Below, in pieces: positions 2,275-28,111 of a stretch of DNA of 64,000 nucleotides. Positions within the stretch are counted from its first letter, which is position 1. Each line of letters opens with the position of its first letter. Below the pieces are notes generated by a model. It made no database searches. It was not told the origin of the DNA and was given only the letters and a program-made list of their open reading frames with translations. This DNA comes from Alphaproteobacteria bacterium. GTDB taxonomy: Bacteria > Pseudomonadota > Alphaproteobacteria > UBA828. The stretch lies in contig OZ243972.1 in the NCBI GenBank assembly GCA_965214705.1, positions 1,984,001 to 2,048,000 on the forward strand, read 5' to 3'. The position numbers and the translations under genes were made by a program.

Positions 2275-2605
2275 TTATGTGCAGTTGAACATAATGAATT
2301 GGCCTGTATCGGTCGTGCGCAGCAGGACCGATACAGGCATTGAGCTGAGCCGCGCTGCACGGCCGTAGTGCCGGGCTATGGGGAAAGTAACCGCTGGGTG
2401 GGAGCCGATTAGGCCGAAGCGGTGCAACCTGTTGGTGTCGCTGGCGGCGCCGGCACTCTGAATCTCCACTTATCAGGTTGCGACGCGGCTGTGCAGGGGC
2501 TCGCGACGATGTTTCGCCGCCGGGCAGCACGAAGCGGGCGCAGGAGCGGTCGCGGCGCGGCGGCCGGGGGGACTGTTGTCGGACCTTGTCGGTTCTGACG
2601 CATCG

Positions 2606-3826
2606 TCACGGCGGTCGGGTATTCGTCGCCCGCATGGCTGCTTGGGGCTGCGGCTCAAGAATGACGGTTTGCCGCAGCGTTGCCTCGCCGCACTGGCGGC
2701 ACACGGTGATGTCGATCCCCGTCAGTCGCAGCATCATCTGCTGCGTCGTTTCCGGCTCCCGCGGTTCAGGGGCAGGCTGGCCGAGCAGGTCTCGGCAGCG
2801 GGCGAGCTTGCGAGCCCGGCAGCGATTGGCGAGCAAGCCGTAGTGGCGCAGGCGGGTGAAGCCGCGCGGGAGGACGTGCAGGAGGAAGCGGCGGATGAAC
2901 TCGTCGACGTCGAGACGCATCACCTTGACCTTGTTGCCGTCAGCGTAGTCGCGCCAACGGAAGCGAACGTGCTCGCCGTCGAAGTCGACGAGGCGATGAT
3001 TGGCGATGGCAGCCTTGTGGGTGTAGCGCCCGAGATAGGCCAGAACGTGCCCGGCGCCGGCGAACGGGGCCTTGGTGTAGACCACCCAGTCGTTCGACCG
3101 CAGCGCGGTCTTCAGACACTCGAACTCGCGGCTGTCGTCACCACCGCCGACGACCTTGAGCCGGAGTTCGCCGTCGCGGTGCGCGGCGCCGAGGAAGTCG
3201 AGATACTTGCCGCGGAAGACCTTCGAGAGCGCGACCGTGGGGAACAGGAAGCCCTTGCGCGCGGGAGTGAGCCAGCGCTCTCTGTCCGGGCTCAGACCGC
3301 CGTCGGTGACGATACAGTGGACATGGATGTGCTGTCCCAGATTCTGCCCCCAAGTGTGCAGCACCATGGTGATGCCGAGCTCGCCGCCGAGCCAGCGGGG
3401 ATTGCGGCCGAACTCGAGCAGGGTCTGGGAGGCGGCCTTGAAGAGCAGCCTGTAGATGAGCGCGGCATTGCCCTGGGCCACGGGGTTGAGCTCGTGGGGC
3501 AGGGTGAACACGACATGCCAGTAGTCGATGTCGAGCAGATCGGCGCACTGACGCTCAACCCACCTGGTCTGCGAGAGGGTCTGGCACTTGGGGCAATGAC
3601 GGTTCCGGCACGAGGCGTACTGGATCGTCACCGCCCCGCAGTGATCGCATTCTGCCTTGAACCCGCCGAGCACAGCGGTGCGGCAGTTCACCAGCGCGTC
3701 GACGACCCTCTGCTGCTGGGCCGAGAGCAGATGTGTCTCGCCATAGGCGTCGCCGCGCTCGCGCAGGATGTCCGCGACCTCCAGCGCCGGCCGTGTGGCT
3801 GGCGCCGCGTGGCCGACATGAGCCAC
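2606..3826 (-). CDS. IS91-family transposase
   Basis: CRTAVLGG, SCRNRHCPKCQ Zn domain, HIHVH HUH motif, YLGRY (YxxxY), RLRHYGLLAN. Confidence 0.95.
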   Translation of the reverse strand: MAHVGHAAPATRPALEVADILRERGDAYGETHLLSAQQQRVVDALVNCRTAVLGGFKAECDHCGAVTIQYASCRNRHCPKCQTLSQTRWVERQCADLLDIDYWHVVFTLPHELNPVAQGNAALIYRLLFKAASQTLLEFGRNPRWLGGELGITMVLHTWGQNLGQHIHVHCIVTDGGLSPDRERWLTPARKGFLFPTVALSKVFRGKYLDFLGAAHRDGELRLKVVGGGDDSREFECLKTALRSNDWVVYTKAPFAGAGHVLAYLGRYTHKAAIANHRLVDFDGEHVRFRWRDYADGNKVKVMRLDVDEFIRRFLLHVLPRGFTRLRHYGLLANRCRARKLARCRDLLGQPAPEPREPETTQQMMLRLTGIDITVCRQCGEATLRQTVILEPQPQAAMRATNTRPP

Positions 3827-3829
3827 CGG

Positions 3830-4684
3830 TCAGGCCTGGGCAGGACGCGGAAACTCCAGCAGGTCCAGGGGCGACGGCGTGGCGGACGTCTTGTCGTGAG
3901 CAAGGTGAAGGTAGCGCATGGTCGAGCGGATTGAGGTGTGCCCGAGGCGGCGTTGGATGACATGCAGCTCGACGCCGGCCTCGAGGAGCCCGGTGGCGTA
4001 GCAATGGCGCAGCGTGTGGATCCCGCCGGGCTTGGCGATCCCGGCTTTGTCCTTGGCTCGATCGTAAACGTGTGCTGGCCCATGGCGCGTCATCGGCCGG
4101 CCGGGAATCCGACCGGGGAACAGCCAGTGCTCGGGCCGTACCCGCTGCCAGTACTCGCGCAGCTCGTCGAGCAGCCGGGGCGAGAGCGGGACGTAGCGGT
4201 CCTTGTTGCCCTTGCCCTGATCGACGCGCAGGCACATCCGCTGTGAGTCGATATCGCTGATCTGCAACCGGCCGAGCTCGCTCGCCCGAAGCCCCGCTGC
4301 ATAGGCCGTCATCAGCAAGGCGCGGTGCTTGCGGTTGATGGTGACGCTGAACAGCCGCACCAGTTCGTCTTGGTTGAGCAGTACGGGCAGGGTGGAAGGC
4401 GTCTTGGCGAAGGGCAGATAGAAGTGCGGCTCGGGCAAGCCCAGCGTGATGCGATAGAGGAAGCGGATCCCTTGGCGAGCGCTGTTGCAGCTCTGCCAAG
4501 CCAGCCCCCGCTCTTCGTGAAGAAAGATGAGGTACTCCTGGACTTCCTCCGCTGAGATGTGCTCGGGGCTGCGACCGTAGTGAACCGCGAGCCCGGAGAC
4601 CGAGTTGAGGTAGGACTTCCTGGTGTTCTCGGCGAAGCCGCGAACCGTCATGTCGTTGATCATGCGCTGGCGAAGTGCCGTCAT
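3830..4684 (-). CDS. tyrosine recombinase/integrase
   Basis: GLRASE, GKGNKDR, HTLRH, LGH, TMRY catalytic residues. Confidence 0.95.
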   Translation of the reverse strand: MTALRQRMINDMTVRGFAENTRKSYLNSVSGLAVHYGRSPEHISAEEVQEYLIFLHEERGLAWQSCNSARQGIRFLYRITLGLPEPHFYLPFAKTPSTLPVLLNQDELVRLFSVTINRKHRALLMTAYAAGLRASELGRLQISDIDSQRMCLRVDQGKGNKDRYVPLSPRLLDELREYWQRVRPEHWLFPGRIPGRPMTRHGPAHVYDRAKDKAGIAKPGGIHTLRHCYATGLLEAGVELHVIQRRLGHTSIRSTMRYLHLAHDKTSATPSPLDLLEFPRPAQA

Positions 4685-4890
4685 GGGGCGTCTCCCTCTG
4701 GGTTTGGTCTGTCACGAAGACACGCCCATGCTCTTGCTCGCCGGCTTGGCGGTCGACGACCATCGATCAACGAGGGAGAAACAGGATTCGACCCTGCGCC
4801 CAGACGCTGGAGCGAACGGCCACACTCAACTTACGCGCGGCAAGGAGATCACTCTGGGCACCCGGCGGCCGAGGCGCCCCGCCGCGGAAC

Positions 4891-4964
4891 GCGGCTCAGT
4901 TCAAGGTTAAGGGTTGGGCAGGCTCTCTCTCGAGAGCCTGCCCAACCCTTTTGAACGAAGCCGC
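4891..4964. repeat. long imperfect palindrome at the junction of elements A and B
   Basis: 19-bp perfect stem 4909-4927/4932-4950 with TCTC loop, extended by GCGGCTCAGTTCAA/TTGAACGAAGCCGC. Confidence 0.9.
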
Positions 4965-5212
4965 GGGCCACGAGAGGCGAAGTTGAGCTATGTGGAAAGT
5001 GCGCTGATGTCAGCGTCAGGCGGCATCCACCGGCAGCAGAGTTGCGCATAAAATCGACGCTCGCGCCGGTCTTTCGGCAGGCATGCGGGCGCACGCTGCG
5101 AGGACTGAGCGGGGTGTGAGCCGAGGGCTGTCAGCCCGGCTCAAGCGGAGACAGGTTCGGTCGTGCGTCGGCGCTTTGGCGCCGTTGCGCGGGGCCGAAG
5201 CGAGCGGGCGTC

Positions 5213-6454
5213 TCACGGTTTCCCCCTGTGGGTCGGCGGCAGCGCCGGCGGGCCGCGCGTCGAGCGGGGCTCATGGCGGCGGCGGATTTCGCGGACGAGG
5301 CGCATGACGCCGCCGCAGTGGGGGCAGGCCACGGGCGCGGTGCCGATCTCGGGCTCTTCGTCGGGCTCGGCCTGAGCGCCGTCCACGCTTCCCTCGGGGG
5401 CGGCGCAGCCGAGGGCGCCGAGAGCCTGGCGTGCTCTCTCCAGCGTGCTGGCGCGGCAGCCGTTGGCGAGGATGCCGAAGTAGCGAATGCGGTGCATGCC
5501 GTCCGGCAGGACGTGCCTCAGGAAGCGGCGGATGAACTCGTCGGCGCTCACGGTGGCGATGCCGTAGCGCGGCTTTCTCTGCCCCGGCGCCTTGGGCTTT
5601 CGGTGGCGGAAGGAGACCGTCTCGCCGTCGAAGGAGACGATGCGGCTGTCGGAGATGGCGATCCTGTGCGTGTAGTGCGAGAGGTACCGGAAGACCTGCT
5701 CAGGCCCGCGGAAGGGCCGCTTGGCGTAGACCACCCAGTCCCTGGCCCGGGCGGCGGCAAGCGTGGCGTGGAACTCGCCGGGATTGGCGAGGTGGGCGAG
5801 GGTGCCGTGGAACTCCAGGTCCCCCCGGCCGTGGGCGCGGGCGAGCTCCTCGAGGAAGAGGCGGCGGAACAGGCTGCCGAGGACCTTGACGGGGGCGAGG
5901 AAGGTGGTGCTCCCCGTCTTCCACTCGCCACTGTCTACGTCGAAGCCCGCGTTGGGCACGACCACGTGCAGGTGCGGGTGGAAGCGGAGCTTCTGATCCC
6001 AGGTATGGAGGACCGCGGTGCCGCCGATGCGCATGCCGCCGTGGCGGGGATCGGCGGCGATGGTGCGCAGGGTCTCGGCGACGGCCCGGAAGAGGATGTC
6101 GAACACCACCCTGCGGTTGCAGAAGGCAATGGCGGCAACCTCCTTGGGCAGGGTGAAGACCACATGGAAGTAGGGCACCGGCAGGATGTCCCCGGCGCGC
6201 TCCTCGCTCCAGAGGTTGGCGGCGAGACCCTGGCAGGTGGGGCAGTGGCGGTTGCGGCAGGAGTTGAAGAGCGGATGCTCGCGCCCGCAGCCCTCGCAGG
6301 CGTACATGTGGCCGCCGAGCACGGCGGTGCGGCACGCCTCGATGGCGCCCATGACCTTGAGCCGGGCGGCGTCGATGCGCCCTTTGTGGCGCTCACGGAA
6401 AGCGGCGCCGGCGCGGCGGAAGATCTCCGCCACGCCCGCGCGTTCGGCCTCCAC
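5213..6454 (-). CDS. IS91-family transposase
   Basis: SCRNRHCPTCQ, HPHLH, YLSHY, RIRYFGILAN, C-terminal CPHC. Confidence 0.95.
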   Translation of the reverse strand: MEAERAGVAEIFRRAGAAFRERHKGRIDAARLKVMGAIEACRTAVLGGHMYACEGCGREHPLFNSCRNRHCPTCQGLAANLWSEERAGDILPVPYFHVVFTLPKEVAAIAFCNRRVVFDILFRAVAETLRTIAADPRHGGMRIGGTAVLHTWDQKLRFHPHLHVVVPNAGFDVDSGEWKTGSTTFLAPVKVLGSLFRRLFLEELARAHGRGDLEFHGTLAHLANPGEFHATLAAARARDWVVYAKRPFRGPEQVFRYLSHYTHRIAISDSRIVSFDGETVSFRHRKPKAPGQRKPRYGIATVSADEFIRRFLRHVLPDGMHRIRYFGILANGCRASTLERARQALGALGCAAPEGSVDGAQAEPDEEPEIGTAPVACPHCGGVMRLVREIRRRHEPRSTRGPPALPPTHRGKP

Positions 6455-6460
6455 GCGCCG

Positions 6461-7339
6461 TCAGTTGCGCAACGCTGCGAAGCCTGAGATCGGGTGGTCG
6501 AGGCCCTCGAACATCTTGCCGGTGACGCGGGCGTAGTGACGGGTCGTGTTCGCGCTTCGATGGCCGAGCATGTCCCGGATCACCTCGATATCGCCGCCGC
6601 GCTCGAGGAGATGGGTCGCCGCCGAATGGCGCAGGCAATGGAAGGTGTAGCTGCGGTCGAGCTCGGCAATGTCGCGCGCCCTCCTGAAGGCGGCCTGCAA
6701 GGTCTCCGTTGCGATGGGCCTGTCGAGCGAGACGCCGTAGAAGAGCCAGCTCGTCGGACGCGGCCAGATGTTCCTGTAGTAGACGCGCAAGTAGTGGATG
6801 ACGATGTCCGGCAACGGTGCCATTCTCTCGGTGCCGCCTTTGCCGGAGGGGATGTGCAGCAGCTTCTTCTCCGACAGGATGTCGCCGACCTTGATGGCCA
6901 AGGTCTCGGAGATGCGGAGCCCGCCGCCATAGCCGGTGACAATGGCAGCACGGTGGCGGAGGTCGGGTGTCGCAAGGATGAGGTGCTCGACCTCCTGCTC
7001 CGACATGTAGCGCGGCAGCTTGCCGGGCTTCTTGCGGGAGCGCAGGCCGGCGACATGGTCAGGCCAGCCGAGTGTGTCGATGTAGAGGAAGTTCAGCGCG
7101 GCGAAGGAGACGTTGGTCGTGCCCGGACTGAGCCCCTTGTCGATCCGCCCCAGGTACCACTGGCGCACCTGCTCGGCGTCGAGCTCGTCCGGCGAGGCGT
7201 CGTAGTACCTGGCCAGGTTCTTGATCTCGCAGATGTAGGCCTTGGACGTGCTCGCGGCCAGATTGGCGATGCGGAGCTGCTCCTCCATGCGCTGGCGAAG
7301 AGGGGTGACGGTGTTCGTGTCGCACGCGGTCCCGGTCAT
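6461..7339 (-). CDS. tyrosine recombinase/integrase
   Basis: TPLRQRM start, GLRISE, GKGGTER, HCLRH, LGH, TRHY; GGAG RBS before ATG 7339. Confidence 0.93.
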   Translation of the reverse strand: MTGTACDTNTVTPLRQRMEEQLRIANLAASTSKAYICEIKNLARYYDASPDELDAEQVRQWYLGRIDKGLSPGTTNVSFAALNFLYIDTLGWPDHVAGLRSRKKPGKLPRYMSEQEVEHLILATPDLRHRAAIVTGYGGGLRISETLAIKVGDILSEKKLLHIPSGKGGTERMAPLPDIVIHYLRVYYRNIWPRPTSWLFYGVSLDRPIATETLQAAFRRARDIAELDRSYTFHCLRHSAATHLLERGGDIEVIRDMLGHRSANTTRHYARVTGKMFEGLDHPISGFAALRN

Positions 7340-7570
7340 TATCGATCTCCCTGGATCGCGACGGCGCGCCGCCGGACCGATCCGGCGACGGTCCGTCGCA
7401 GGGGTCGATGCTAACCACTGGTGATCGGGAGGCTGCTGGGGATCCGCCACCCGACGGGCGGAGCGCCACTGACGCAACCGGGAAGCGAACGCACAGAACA
7501 AACGGCACCCGCGACGCCTCGGAAATGAATGAACTCTACGCCGCTAACTCCGCGTAGCGGCTTCGTTCAA

Positions 7571-27664: not shown

Positions 27665-28111
27665 CAAGGTTAAGGGTTGCGCAGGTTCTCGAGAGAGAGC
27701 CTGCGCAACCCTTTTGAACGGAGGCGCGGGCCACGAGAGGCGAAGTTGAGCTAAGTGGAAAGAGCGCTGATGTCAGCGTCAGGCGGCATCCACCGGCAGC
27801 AGGGTTGCGCATGAGATCGCGCTCGCGCCCGTCTTTCGGCAGGCATGCGGGCGCACGCTGCGAGGACTGAGCGGAGTGTGAGCCGAGGGCTGTCACCCCG
27901 GCTCAAGCGGAGACAGGTTCGGTCGTGCGTCGGCGCTTTGGCGCCGTTGCGCGGGGCCGAAGTGAGCGGCCGTCTCACGGTTTCCCCCTGTGGTTCGGCG
28001 GCAGCGCCGGCGGGCCGCACGTCGAGCGGGGCTCATGGCGGCGGTGGATTTCGCGGACGAGGCGCATGACGCCGCCGCAGTGGGGGCAGGCCACGGGCGC
28101 GGCGTCGATCT
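27665..28111 (-). mobile_element. remnant of the downstream end of an element-B-like IS91 element
   Basis: Aligns with 4902-5349, including hairpin, 14-mer and the last transposase codons (ACPHCGGVMR). Confidence 0.9.

Follow-up and report, generated by a model that had tools for sequence, protein, structure and literature searches.

Positions 4891–4964 of the window (the whole stretch of 64,000 nt analysed here) are the zero-spacer head-to-tail junction of two insertion sequences of the IS91 family, the terIS end of element A being joined directly to the oriIS end of element B. The resulting 74-nt sequence is an interrupted palindrome which folds into an exceptionally stable structure as single-stranded DNA. 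The underlying layout of a terminal arm at the ter end, a hairpin at the ori end and an inverted copy of the arm beside this hairpin is a conserved trait of the element family, with co-varying arms. In both elements the gene for a tyrosine recombinase is located directly upstream of that for a Y2 HUH transposase (tnpA) and in the same orientation. The most likely reading of the joint is that the transposase works on the folded form, the recombinase being an accessory for the recognition of ends and target. IS91-type elements move resistance and virulence genes by a mechanism that is still poorly known, and a large subgroup of them carries a tyrosine recombinase, for which the anatomy described here supplies a concrete substrate and a dyad-symmetric target.

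Organization of the A/B joint

The order of segments in the joint (terminal 14-mer, GGTT, 19-bp stem with 4-nt loop, inverted 14-mer; Table 1) is exactly that given in the initial annotation. The inner stem is 100 % complementary over its 19 bp and the outer 14-nt arms pair at 12 of 14 positions, so that two duplex segments flank an unpaired stretch; the GGTT bulge is one-sided and 4 nt long. DNA folding of positions 4885–4970 as single strand yielded −40 kcal/mol (z −10.9), a stability reached by none of 200 shuffled sequences, and the 74-mer alone yielded −36.3 kcal/mol (z −11.3), confirming the bulged stem-loop that had been read from the letters.

The GGTT "bulge" belongs to B, because each of B's 94 exact-anchor ori ends in the genome begins with it. 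As contigs assembled from public sequencing runs (Logan) moreover break at 4903–4905, A and B abut without spacer. The element boundary CAA^GG (the caret marking the boundary) falls exactly where the outer stem meets the bulge. Of the 24 public runs listed, 20 contain all or part of the stretch, in every case as Logan contigs; none of the listed holders is recorded as RNA. Contig breaks at 2295, 4903–4905 and 7570 correspond to the element ends, and one contig spans exactly 2295–4904. The Logan contigs of four runs were compared; they yielded no joints, stop at the element ends and hence have no bearing on circles either way.

A pattern search in the window located the 14-mer at both ends of both elements. 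Each element thus possesses, as initially described, a terminal 14-mer and, inside its other end next to a hairpin, an inverted copy (one mismatch in A, identical in B). The terminal 14-mers of A and B differ at only 2 of 14 positions, despite the encoded proteins sharing only 41 % (transposases) and 33 % (recombinases) identity. When 3 mismatches were allowed, 8 matches were obtained versus 7.2 expected, which is not above chance; those with 0–2 mismatches comprise the four terminal copies and one match with 2 mismatches at 27714–27727 (− strand), inside a relic of B. The argument built on the 14-mers rests on their positions and on the genome copies, not on the count of this search.

Since the ter end recurs as its reverse complement in the arm beside the ori hairpin, any ter-ori joint, be it in a circle or in a tandem, forms one long interrupted palindrome. 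The A/B joint is laid out like the circle joint of B itself or like a B-B tandem, with the ter arm of A replacing that of B. Circle joints constructed in silico fold with −43.6 (B), −34.6 (A) and −35.9 kcal/mol (relative G002), and naturally occurring tandem joints with −52.1 (B-B on contig C2) and −28 to −33 kcal/mol (genome G004). The proposal that circularisation would create the same structure agrees with the in silico circle of B and the natural B-B tandem, and extends to the other elements folded.

At the foot of the inner stem, the heptamer TTGGGCA is L-box-like, matching 4 of the 5 specified positions of the target consensus, which is not above chance given that several spacings were tried.

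Table 1 Coordinates of elements A and B and of their joint in the window
Feature	Position	Strand	Basis or remark
Element A, IS91-family insertion sequence, 2610 bp, recombinase + transposase	2295..4904	-	genome copies share exact span
A ori leader TGAATTG	2295-2301		directly before oriIS hairpin
A oriIS hairpin, 17-bp arms, 94 % complementary, 3 nt between	2302..2338	.	inverted-repeat listing
A ori-proximal inverted terminal 14-mer, 13/14	2340..2353	-	single difference becomes a T.G pair on folding
A Y2 HUH transposase gene, 406 aa	2606..3826	-	Pfam, NCBIfam
A tyrosine recombinase gene, 284 aa	3830..4684	-	Pfam, NCBIfam, PDB matches
A terIS end	4881..4904	+	palindrome GCCGCG-GAA-CGCGGC 4881-4895 overlaps 14-mer GCGGCTCAGTTCAA 4891-4904; copies end here
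A-ter / B-ori joint, 74-nt interrupted palindrome	4891..4964	+	sequence reading and ssDNA folding
Parts of the joint	GCGGCTCAGTTCAA 4891-4904; GGTT 4905-4908; stem 4909-4927; loop TCTC 4928-4931; stem 4932-4950; TTGAACGAAGCCGC 4951-4964		
Element B, IS91-family insertion sequence, 2666 bp	4905..7570	-	genome copies
B oriIS: leader GGTT + perfect 19-bp hairpin, loop TCTC	4905..4950	.	
B ori-proximal inverted terminal 14-mer, 14/14	4951..4964	-	
B Y2 HUH transposase gene, 413 aa	5213..6454	-	
B tyrosine recombinase gene	6461..7339	-	ORF open to 7501; 7339 start picked by alignment to A protein
B terIS end	7540..7570	+	palindrome GCCGCTA-N8-TAGCGGC 7540-7561 overlaps terminal 14-mer 7557-7570; flanks vary past 7570

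Copies of A and B in the genome

Overall, B is represented in the genome by 94 ori and 100 ter ends and by 65 uninterrupted copies, with an identity of about 99.9 %. On the + strand every copy begins GGTTAAGGG... and nearly every copy terminates ...GCGGCTTCGTTCAA, the ter ends reading ...GTTCA in 99 and ...GTTCAA in 96 of 100 cases. At two genomic places A is followed by a full B, at a third by a perfected hairpin only; A and B may have moved jointly, through read-through of A's terminus. One natural B-B tandem was found, on contig C2.

Two loop forms, inverted relative to each other, exist for the ori hairpin of B in copies that are otherwise near-identical: TCTC in most and GAGA in about 10 of the listed ori ends. 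Two "perfected" palindromes carry a gained AACC that complements the GGTT leader from across the hairpin: one is the joint of the B-B tandem (C2:~646565-646646; 82 nt, −52 kcal/mol), the other a solo hairpin following an A copy without a B body (C1:3505986-3506040). The window itself harbours the relic of a diverged B (27665–28111), which retains a flop-form ori hairpin, the arm TTGAACGGAGGCGC and, up to the cut at ~28111, the 3' part of tnpA. Insertion sequences are very abundant in the genome, with about 100 ends contributed by B alone; other insertions interrupt many of the B copies, and additional relatives sharing about 80 % identity with B are present.

For A, a paralogous empty site is located at C1:4094758. 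An ORF on the − strand (1473–2360; DUF7146 and Toprim) has its listed start inside the ori end of A, and a paralogous copy of its flank, together with another A copy, is found at C1:3503384; the 5' end of this ORF may have been cut, or newly defined, by A.

Transposases and recombinases

The transposases of A and B match the Pfam families Y2_Tnp (6.3e-59 and 2.7e-54, respectively) and Zn_Tnp_IS91 as well as NCBIfam NF033538 for IS91 family transposases (432 and 383 bits; cut-off 125), and the columns H159/H161/H163 and Y257/Y261 are invariant between them. The initial classification of both units as recombinase plus HUH (IS91-family) elements is thereby corroborated. Both elements combine the Y2 HUH domain and the Zn-binding N-terminal domain with distinct oriIS and terIS ends bearing palindromes, and B displays oriented insertion at a CTTG-type tetranucleotide without duplication (CAA, AAA or GAA before GGTT in 71 of 94 ends).

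In the available portion of the account by PMC13181058, the oriIS of IS91 carries one or more subterminal palindromes beside the target and terIS a small palindrome at the cleavage site; single- and double-stranded circles with the ori-ter joint are formed, in accordance with the ssDNA circles invoked at the outset. TnpA alone inserts the joint of the bottom-strand ssDNA circle, an upstream Orf121 raises the precision at terIS, and the target is CTTG (CTTG/GTTC type) without target duplication (PMC13181058, same portion). There, canonical members are also described as devoid of terminal inverted repeats; the 14-bp arms are thus particular to the recombinase-carrying group. The presence of 14-bp inverted arms in A (13/14) and B (14/14) is a difference within the IS91 family and not an exclusion from it.

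The recombinase of A matches Pfam Phage_integrase (1.5e-37) and Phage_int_SAM_4. Its top NCBIfam match is TIGR02249 (integron integrase) with 158.5 bits, the second recombinase scoring 129.1 bits, and its best PDB match is VchIntIA (2a3v; E 7e-31). The latter alignment falls into two stretches, query residues 179–207 facing residues 181–251 of the 2a3v chain, and the IntI-specific insertion (about 40 aa net) is therefore missing. The function of this insertion in IntI is to read extrahelical bases. With TIGR02249 scores below the cut-off of 265 and the insertion absent, the recombinases are not IntI proteins in the strict sense. The RxxE, GKG, HxLRH and LGH...Y stretches align to VchIntIA with the conserved-motif residues present; judged by sequence, the protein is integron-integrase/Xer-like and probably does something catalytic. 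The kinship with integron integrases agrees with the accessible part of bioRxiv 10.1101/542381, which names IS91 recombinases as the nearest homologues of IntI and describes them as lacking the IntI insertion.

Conservation of the layout among relatives

A scan of one genome per species yielded 79 loci, in 77 of which the recombinase gene is located directly upstream of tnpA; the two exceptions are due to a contig end (L029) and a truncated copy (L074). L074 and L016, considered as integrase-less relatives within the clade, are truncated copies with recombinase remnants rather than natural forms.

Arms were compared in the 54 loci that have a 5' arm and enough downstream DNA (threshold 12/16, or 11/12 where the arm was shortened). 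An inverted arm was present in 49 of them, mostly 220–350 nt after tnpA and in a few cases up to ~510 nt. Hairpins of at least 16 pairs starting at most 5 nt from the arm were found in 33 of 44 unique ori regions versus 92 of 440 random windows of the same loci. The sequence of the hairpin varies between subfamilies while its position is kept, and the tail following it is conserved across relatives. The ori hairpins of relatives contain symmetric 1x1 mismatches, and ter palindromes are likewise present. At arm positions 6, 9 and 12, with 2–3 types of Watson-Crick pairs each, the two arms are complementary in 36–40 of 40 elements; at position 8, 17 of the 40 have a C.C mismatch, and arm mismatches are not wobble pairs. 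Both the paired 14-mer/hairpin layout and the covariation of its arms thus held when homologues were inspected. A consensus fold with RNAalifold (MAFFT alignment of 28 ori regions) returned 0 pairs since the variable loops misalign, and was replaced by per-sequence folds. The G003 family was excluded from the analysis of ends, its 3' boundary being wrong with all flanks still alike.

In two families of relatives, G002 (L094–L104) and G004 (L122–L141), the ori end and the ter arm are separated by two bases that vary from copy to copy (..CA-NN-GAAC.. and ..GT-NN-GGAC.., respectively), the rest of the element being identical. Two G002 copies carry the dinucleotide found after the 3' end of a sister copy, which suggests, for this small sample, that two flank bases travel with the element. 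The G004 relative resides in a family of ~80-nt dyad-symmetric repeats (..ATGTCCGGACTCGACGT-NN / NN-AGCGG..CAT..) and also forms a direct head-to-tail tandem (L128/L129).

Insertion sites

No target duplication was found in the flanks of the genome copies of B. The three bases preceding GGTT (n = 94) are CAA (45), AAA (15), GAA (11) or others (23), and on the gene strand, past a C that never varies (76/76), B is followed by TTG in 38, TTT in 14 and TTC in 10 of 76 cases. B inserts after NAA, mostly CAA, i.e. 5' of (C)TTG, which is an IS91-like rule. Across 73 distinct non-tandem sites, the left half of the target is marked by C at −7 (43 sites), G at −6 (52), C at −3 (37), A at −2 (68) and A at −1 (60), and it matches the final 7 nt of the ter arm (CGTTCAA). 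The ter end of A (...CGTTCAA) is such a target, which would explain why B sits on the end of A.

A second, weaker half is indicated by T at +7 and T at +8, each present in 34 of the 73 sites (p ~1e-11), making the target pattern of B dyad-symmetric (CGNNCAA^N6TT), as is that of A (ACATAA^N6-TTATGT). In the ter flanks of A, YTATGT follows exactly 6 nt past the end in 6 of 8 cases (pattern ACATAA^N6-YTATGT), and these ..CATAA^N6-TTATG.. flanks resemble an Xer-type core site. A tyrosine recombinase core site typically has its insertion point at one border of a 6-nt spacer that is flanked by inverted half-sites.

A hairpin formed by the B target was rejected, the per-site complementarity of the halves (2.29 pairs) not exceeding that of permuted halves (2.46). 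That the halves do not pair site by site points to a reading of the target by protein and not to a target hairpin. Simple base-pairing between ori arm and target as a guide is weakened by positions −4 and −5 of the B target, which are not T.

Directly outside the ori end, 9 of 10 genomic A copies have an exact or near palindrome (2275–2294 for the copy in the window). It is exact in six copies (YTAYGT-N8-ACRTAR), with arms that change compensatingly and a centre that is inverted between copies; the genome contains only 9 palindromes of this type, 8 of which touch an A copy.

Function of the folded joint

If, as appears most likely, the transposase works on the folded joint, B would have arrived on A since the insertion machinery cuts after ...CAA and the ...CGTTCAA of A offers the best possible such site. 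By the precedent of IS91, the folded ssDNA joint would be the substrate of the HUH transposase; the recombinase would take the position of Orf121 in IS91 as an accessory factor, its likeliest role being to recognise the ter arm as well as target half-sites that resemble ter. The boundary between outer stem and bulge, CAA^GG, is a typical place for an HUH nick. The + strand of the window, opposite to the genes of A and B, would by rolling-circle logic be the displaced strand, its match to the published "bottom strand" being assumed. The joint of an integrase-less, IS1294-like element likewise has a 12-bp outer stem around the ter hairpin, with a weak fold (z −2.6; one locus, ends inferred). Several observations run against the preferred reading. 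The 14-bp arms, being particular to the recombinase-carrying group, could be sites of the recombinase; the dyad-symmetric target halves of B and A fit the core site of a dimeric tyrosine recombinase and not a monomeric ssDNA nuclease; arm-target base-pairing does not explain target choice, as −4/−5 are not T; and the recombinase, by its sequence equipped with the conserved-motif residues, is kept in 77 of 79 loci.

In a tentative alternative, the 14-mers are candidate double-strand sites for an accessory recombinase engaged in ter termination, ori marking, target steering or the resolution of tandems or co-integrates; the long fold would then be a by-product of the same site being inverted at both ends. 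Such a role is consistent with the recombinase gene occupying the place of orf121 in IS91, tight to tnpA (gaps of 3 nt in A and 6 nt in B), and with the improved terIS precision ascribed to Orf121 in the part of PMC13181058 available. The arms co-vary as identical sequences without wobble pairs, the target half-site equals the arm end, and the target halves, at 2.29 versus 2.46 permuted pairs, favour protein reading; canonical members without recombinase are, moreover, said to lack inverted repeats (PMC13181058, in the same part). The same sites could, however, be read by the Zn-binding N-terminal domain of TnpA, and the persistence of unresolved tandems in the genome of B and in G004 is unlike an efficient resolvase. 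A more far-reaching role for the recombinase, put forward in the initial annotation, appears unlikely: the HUH enzyme peels off a single-stranded circle, whose folded ter-ori joint is recognised attC-like by the recombinase, and single-strand exchange integrates or resolves the element. If true, integron-type ssDNA recombination would be tied to rolling-circle transposition; if the recombinase does not act on the joint, the latter is an ordinary tandem IS junction. The affiliation of the recombinases with integron integrases (VchIntIA, TIGR02249 and, as far as its accessible part goes, bioRxiv 10.1101/542381), the retention of the gene in 77 of 79 loci and the two duplex segments around an unpaired stretch speak for recombination at the joint, as do insertion at the edge of a 6-nt spacer between dyad half-sites (CGNNCAA^N6TT in B; ACATAA^N6-YTATGT in A, 6/8) and the occurrence of the G004 relative in a dyad-symmetric repeat family. 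The claim is nevertheless not supported: the ~40-aa IntI-specific insertion is missing, the 19-bp stem of B is free of extrahelical bases and relatives show symmetric 1x1 mismatches, arm mismatches are C.C and not wobble, and the integrase-less IS1294-like joint folds too. Furthermore, the IS91-like signature of B (no duplication, CTTG-like target) is the outcome obtained with TnpA alone, which inserts the joint in IS91 (PMC13181058, as far as available).

A strict division of labour, in which the HUH enzyme would only make the single-stranded circle and the recombinase would insert the folded joint by a single-strand exchange at the 6-nt-spacer edge of dyad or hairpin targets (CGNNCAA^N6TT in B, ..CATAA^N6-TTATG.. 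in A, attC-like repeats in relatives), is judged quite unlikely; if true, such a two-enzyme transposon would represent an extant connection from rolling-circle transposons to integron cassettes. Very improbable is a housekeeping function of the hairpin, either as terminator of the recombinase-tnpA unit or as single-strand origin priming the second strand on the ssDNA circle. Rolling-circle plasmids need single-strand origins, the transcribed strand bears the hairpin 260 nt downstream of tnpA, and the flip/flop of the loop together with the two perfected palindromes shows that the hairpin is extruded or copied across in vivo. Set against this, the element boundary 4 nt from the stem in 94 of 94 copies and the tail of the hairpin conserved across relatives fit a nuclease site, and the inverted ter arm is left unexplained. 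The terminator variant was rejected, as the gene strand reads AACCTTG after the stem, with no T run.

Comparison with known systems

In the CTX phage, ssDNA is made by a rolling-circle Rep protein and a folded region (attP) mimics the Xer core, allowing XerCD to integrate it at dif by a single-strand exchange at one edge of a 6–7 bp central region. The ..CATAA^N6-TTATG.. flanks of A are similarly Xer-core-like, whereas CTX employs host recombinases and chromosomal dif in place of an element-encoded putative recombinase. The Y1 HUH enzyme TnpA of IS200/IS605 elements uses subterminal hairpins and short foot sequences to define cleavage and target sites on ssDNA. Comparably, complementarity to the arm TTGAACG is found in the ter end and in the preferred target alike; in contrast, positions −4/−5 of the B target break the base-pairing rule, and enzyme family and rolling-circle mode differ as well.

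An AAC triplet forms part of the attC consensus of integrons, whose folded form places an unpaired central spacer between R and L boxes and carries a variable terminal structure on top. Like attC, the joint is an imperfect palindrome whose ssDNA form comprises two duplex segments separated by an unpaired stretch, its recombinase has IntI as nearest relative, and its boundary follows AA, as in the AAC triplet (consensus taken partly from PMC2727003). Folded attC sites carry two or three extrahelical bases on one arm of the stem, according to the portion of PMC2727003 available. The joint differs in having none of these and in possessing a 14-bp outer stem and a one-sided 4-nt bulge; the designation "attC-like" hence holds only in a loose structural sense and fails with respect to extrahelical bases in the stem of B. 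From the IntI system A and B are further distinguished by a recombinase without the IntI insertion and by an HUH nuclease of their own.

IS91-family members with an upstream tyrosine recombinase are presumably listed in ISfinder and TnPedia, and those known have the same gene pair and order as A and B. In the literature searched (ISfinder, TnPedia and supplements excluded), no description of ends, joint fold or target rule was found for this recombinase-carrying group. The "Integron-like" recombinase subgroup of Smyshlyaev et al. (bioRxiv 10.1101/542381, accessible part) agrees with A and B in having an IntI-like recombinase without the IntI insertion. With canonical members (IS91, IS801, IS1294, IS1294b) the two elements share the Y2 HUH transposase with Zn-binding N-terminus, oriIS/terIS palindromes, lack of target duplication and the placing of the ori end next to a CTTG/GTTC-type target (PMC13181058, portion available). 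IS91 also has a gene in the corresponding position, a small accessory gene upstream of tnpA, instead of which A and B carry a full tyrosine recombinase. They differ from canonical IS91 in repeating the ter end in inverted orientation beside the ori hairpin (14 bp, 40 distinct pairs co-varying), and B additionally in the extension of its target to CGNNCAA^N6TT. In an E. coli plasmid record (L092, 2849–3010), the ori end of a canonical IS91 without recombinase is followed immediately by a second terIS and 146 nt of a second copy, which makes this a head-to-tail joint.
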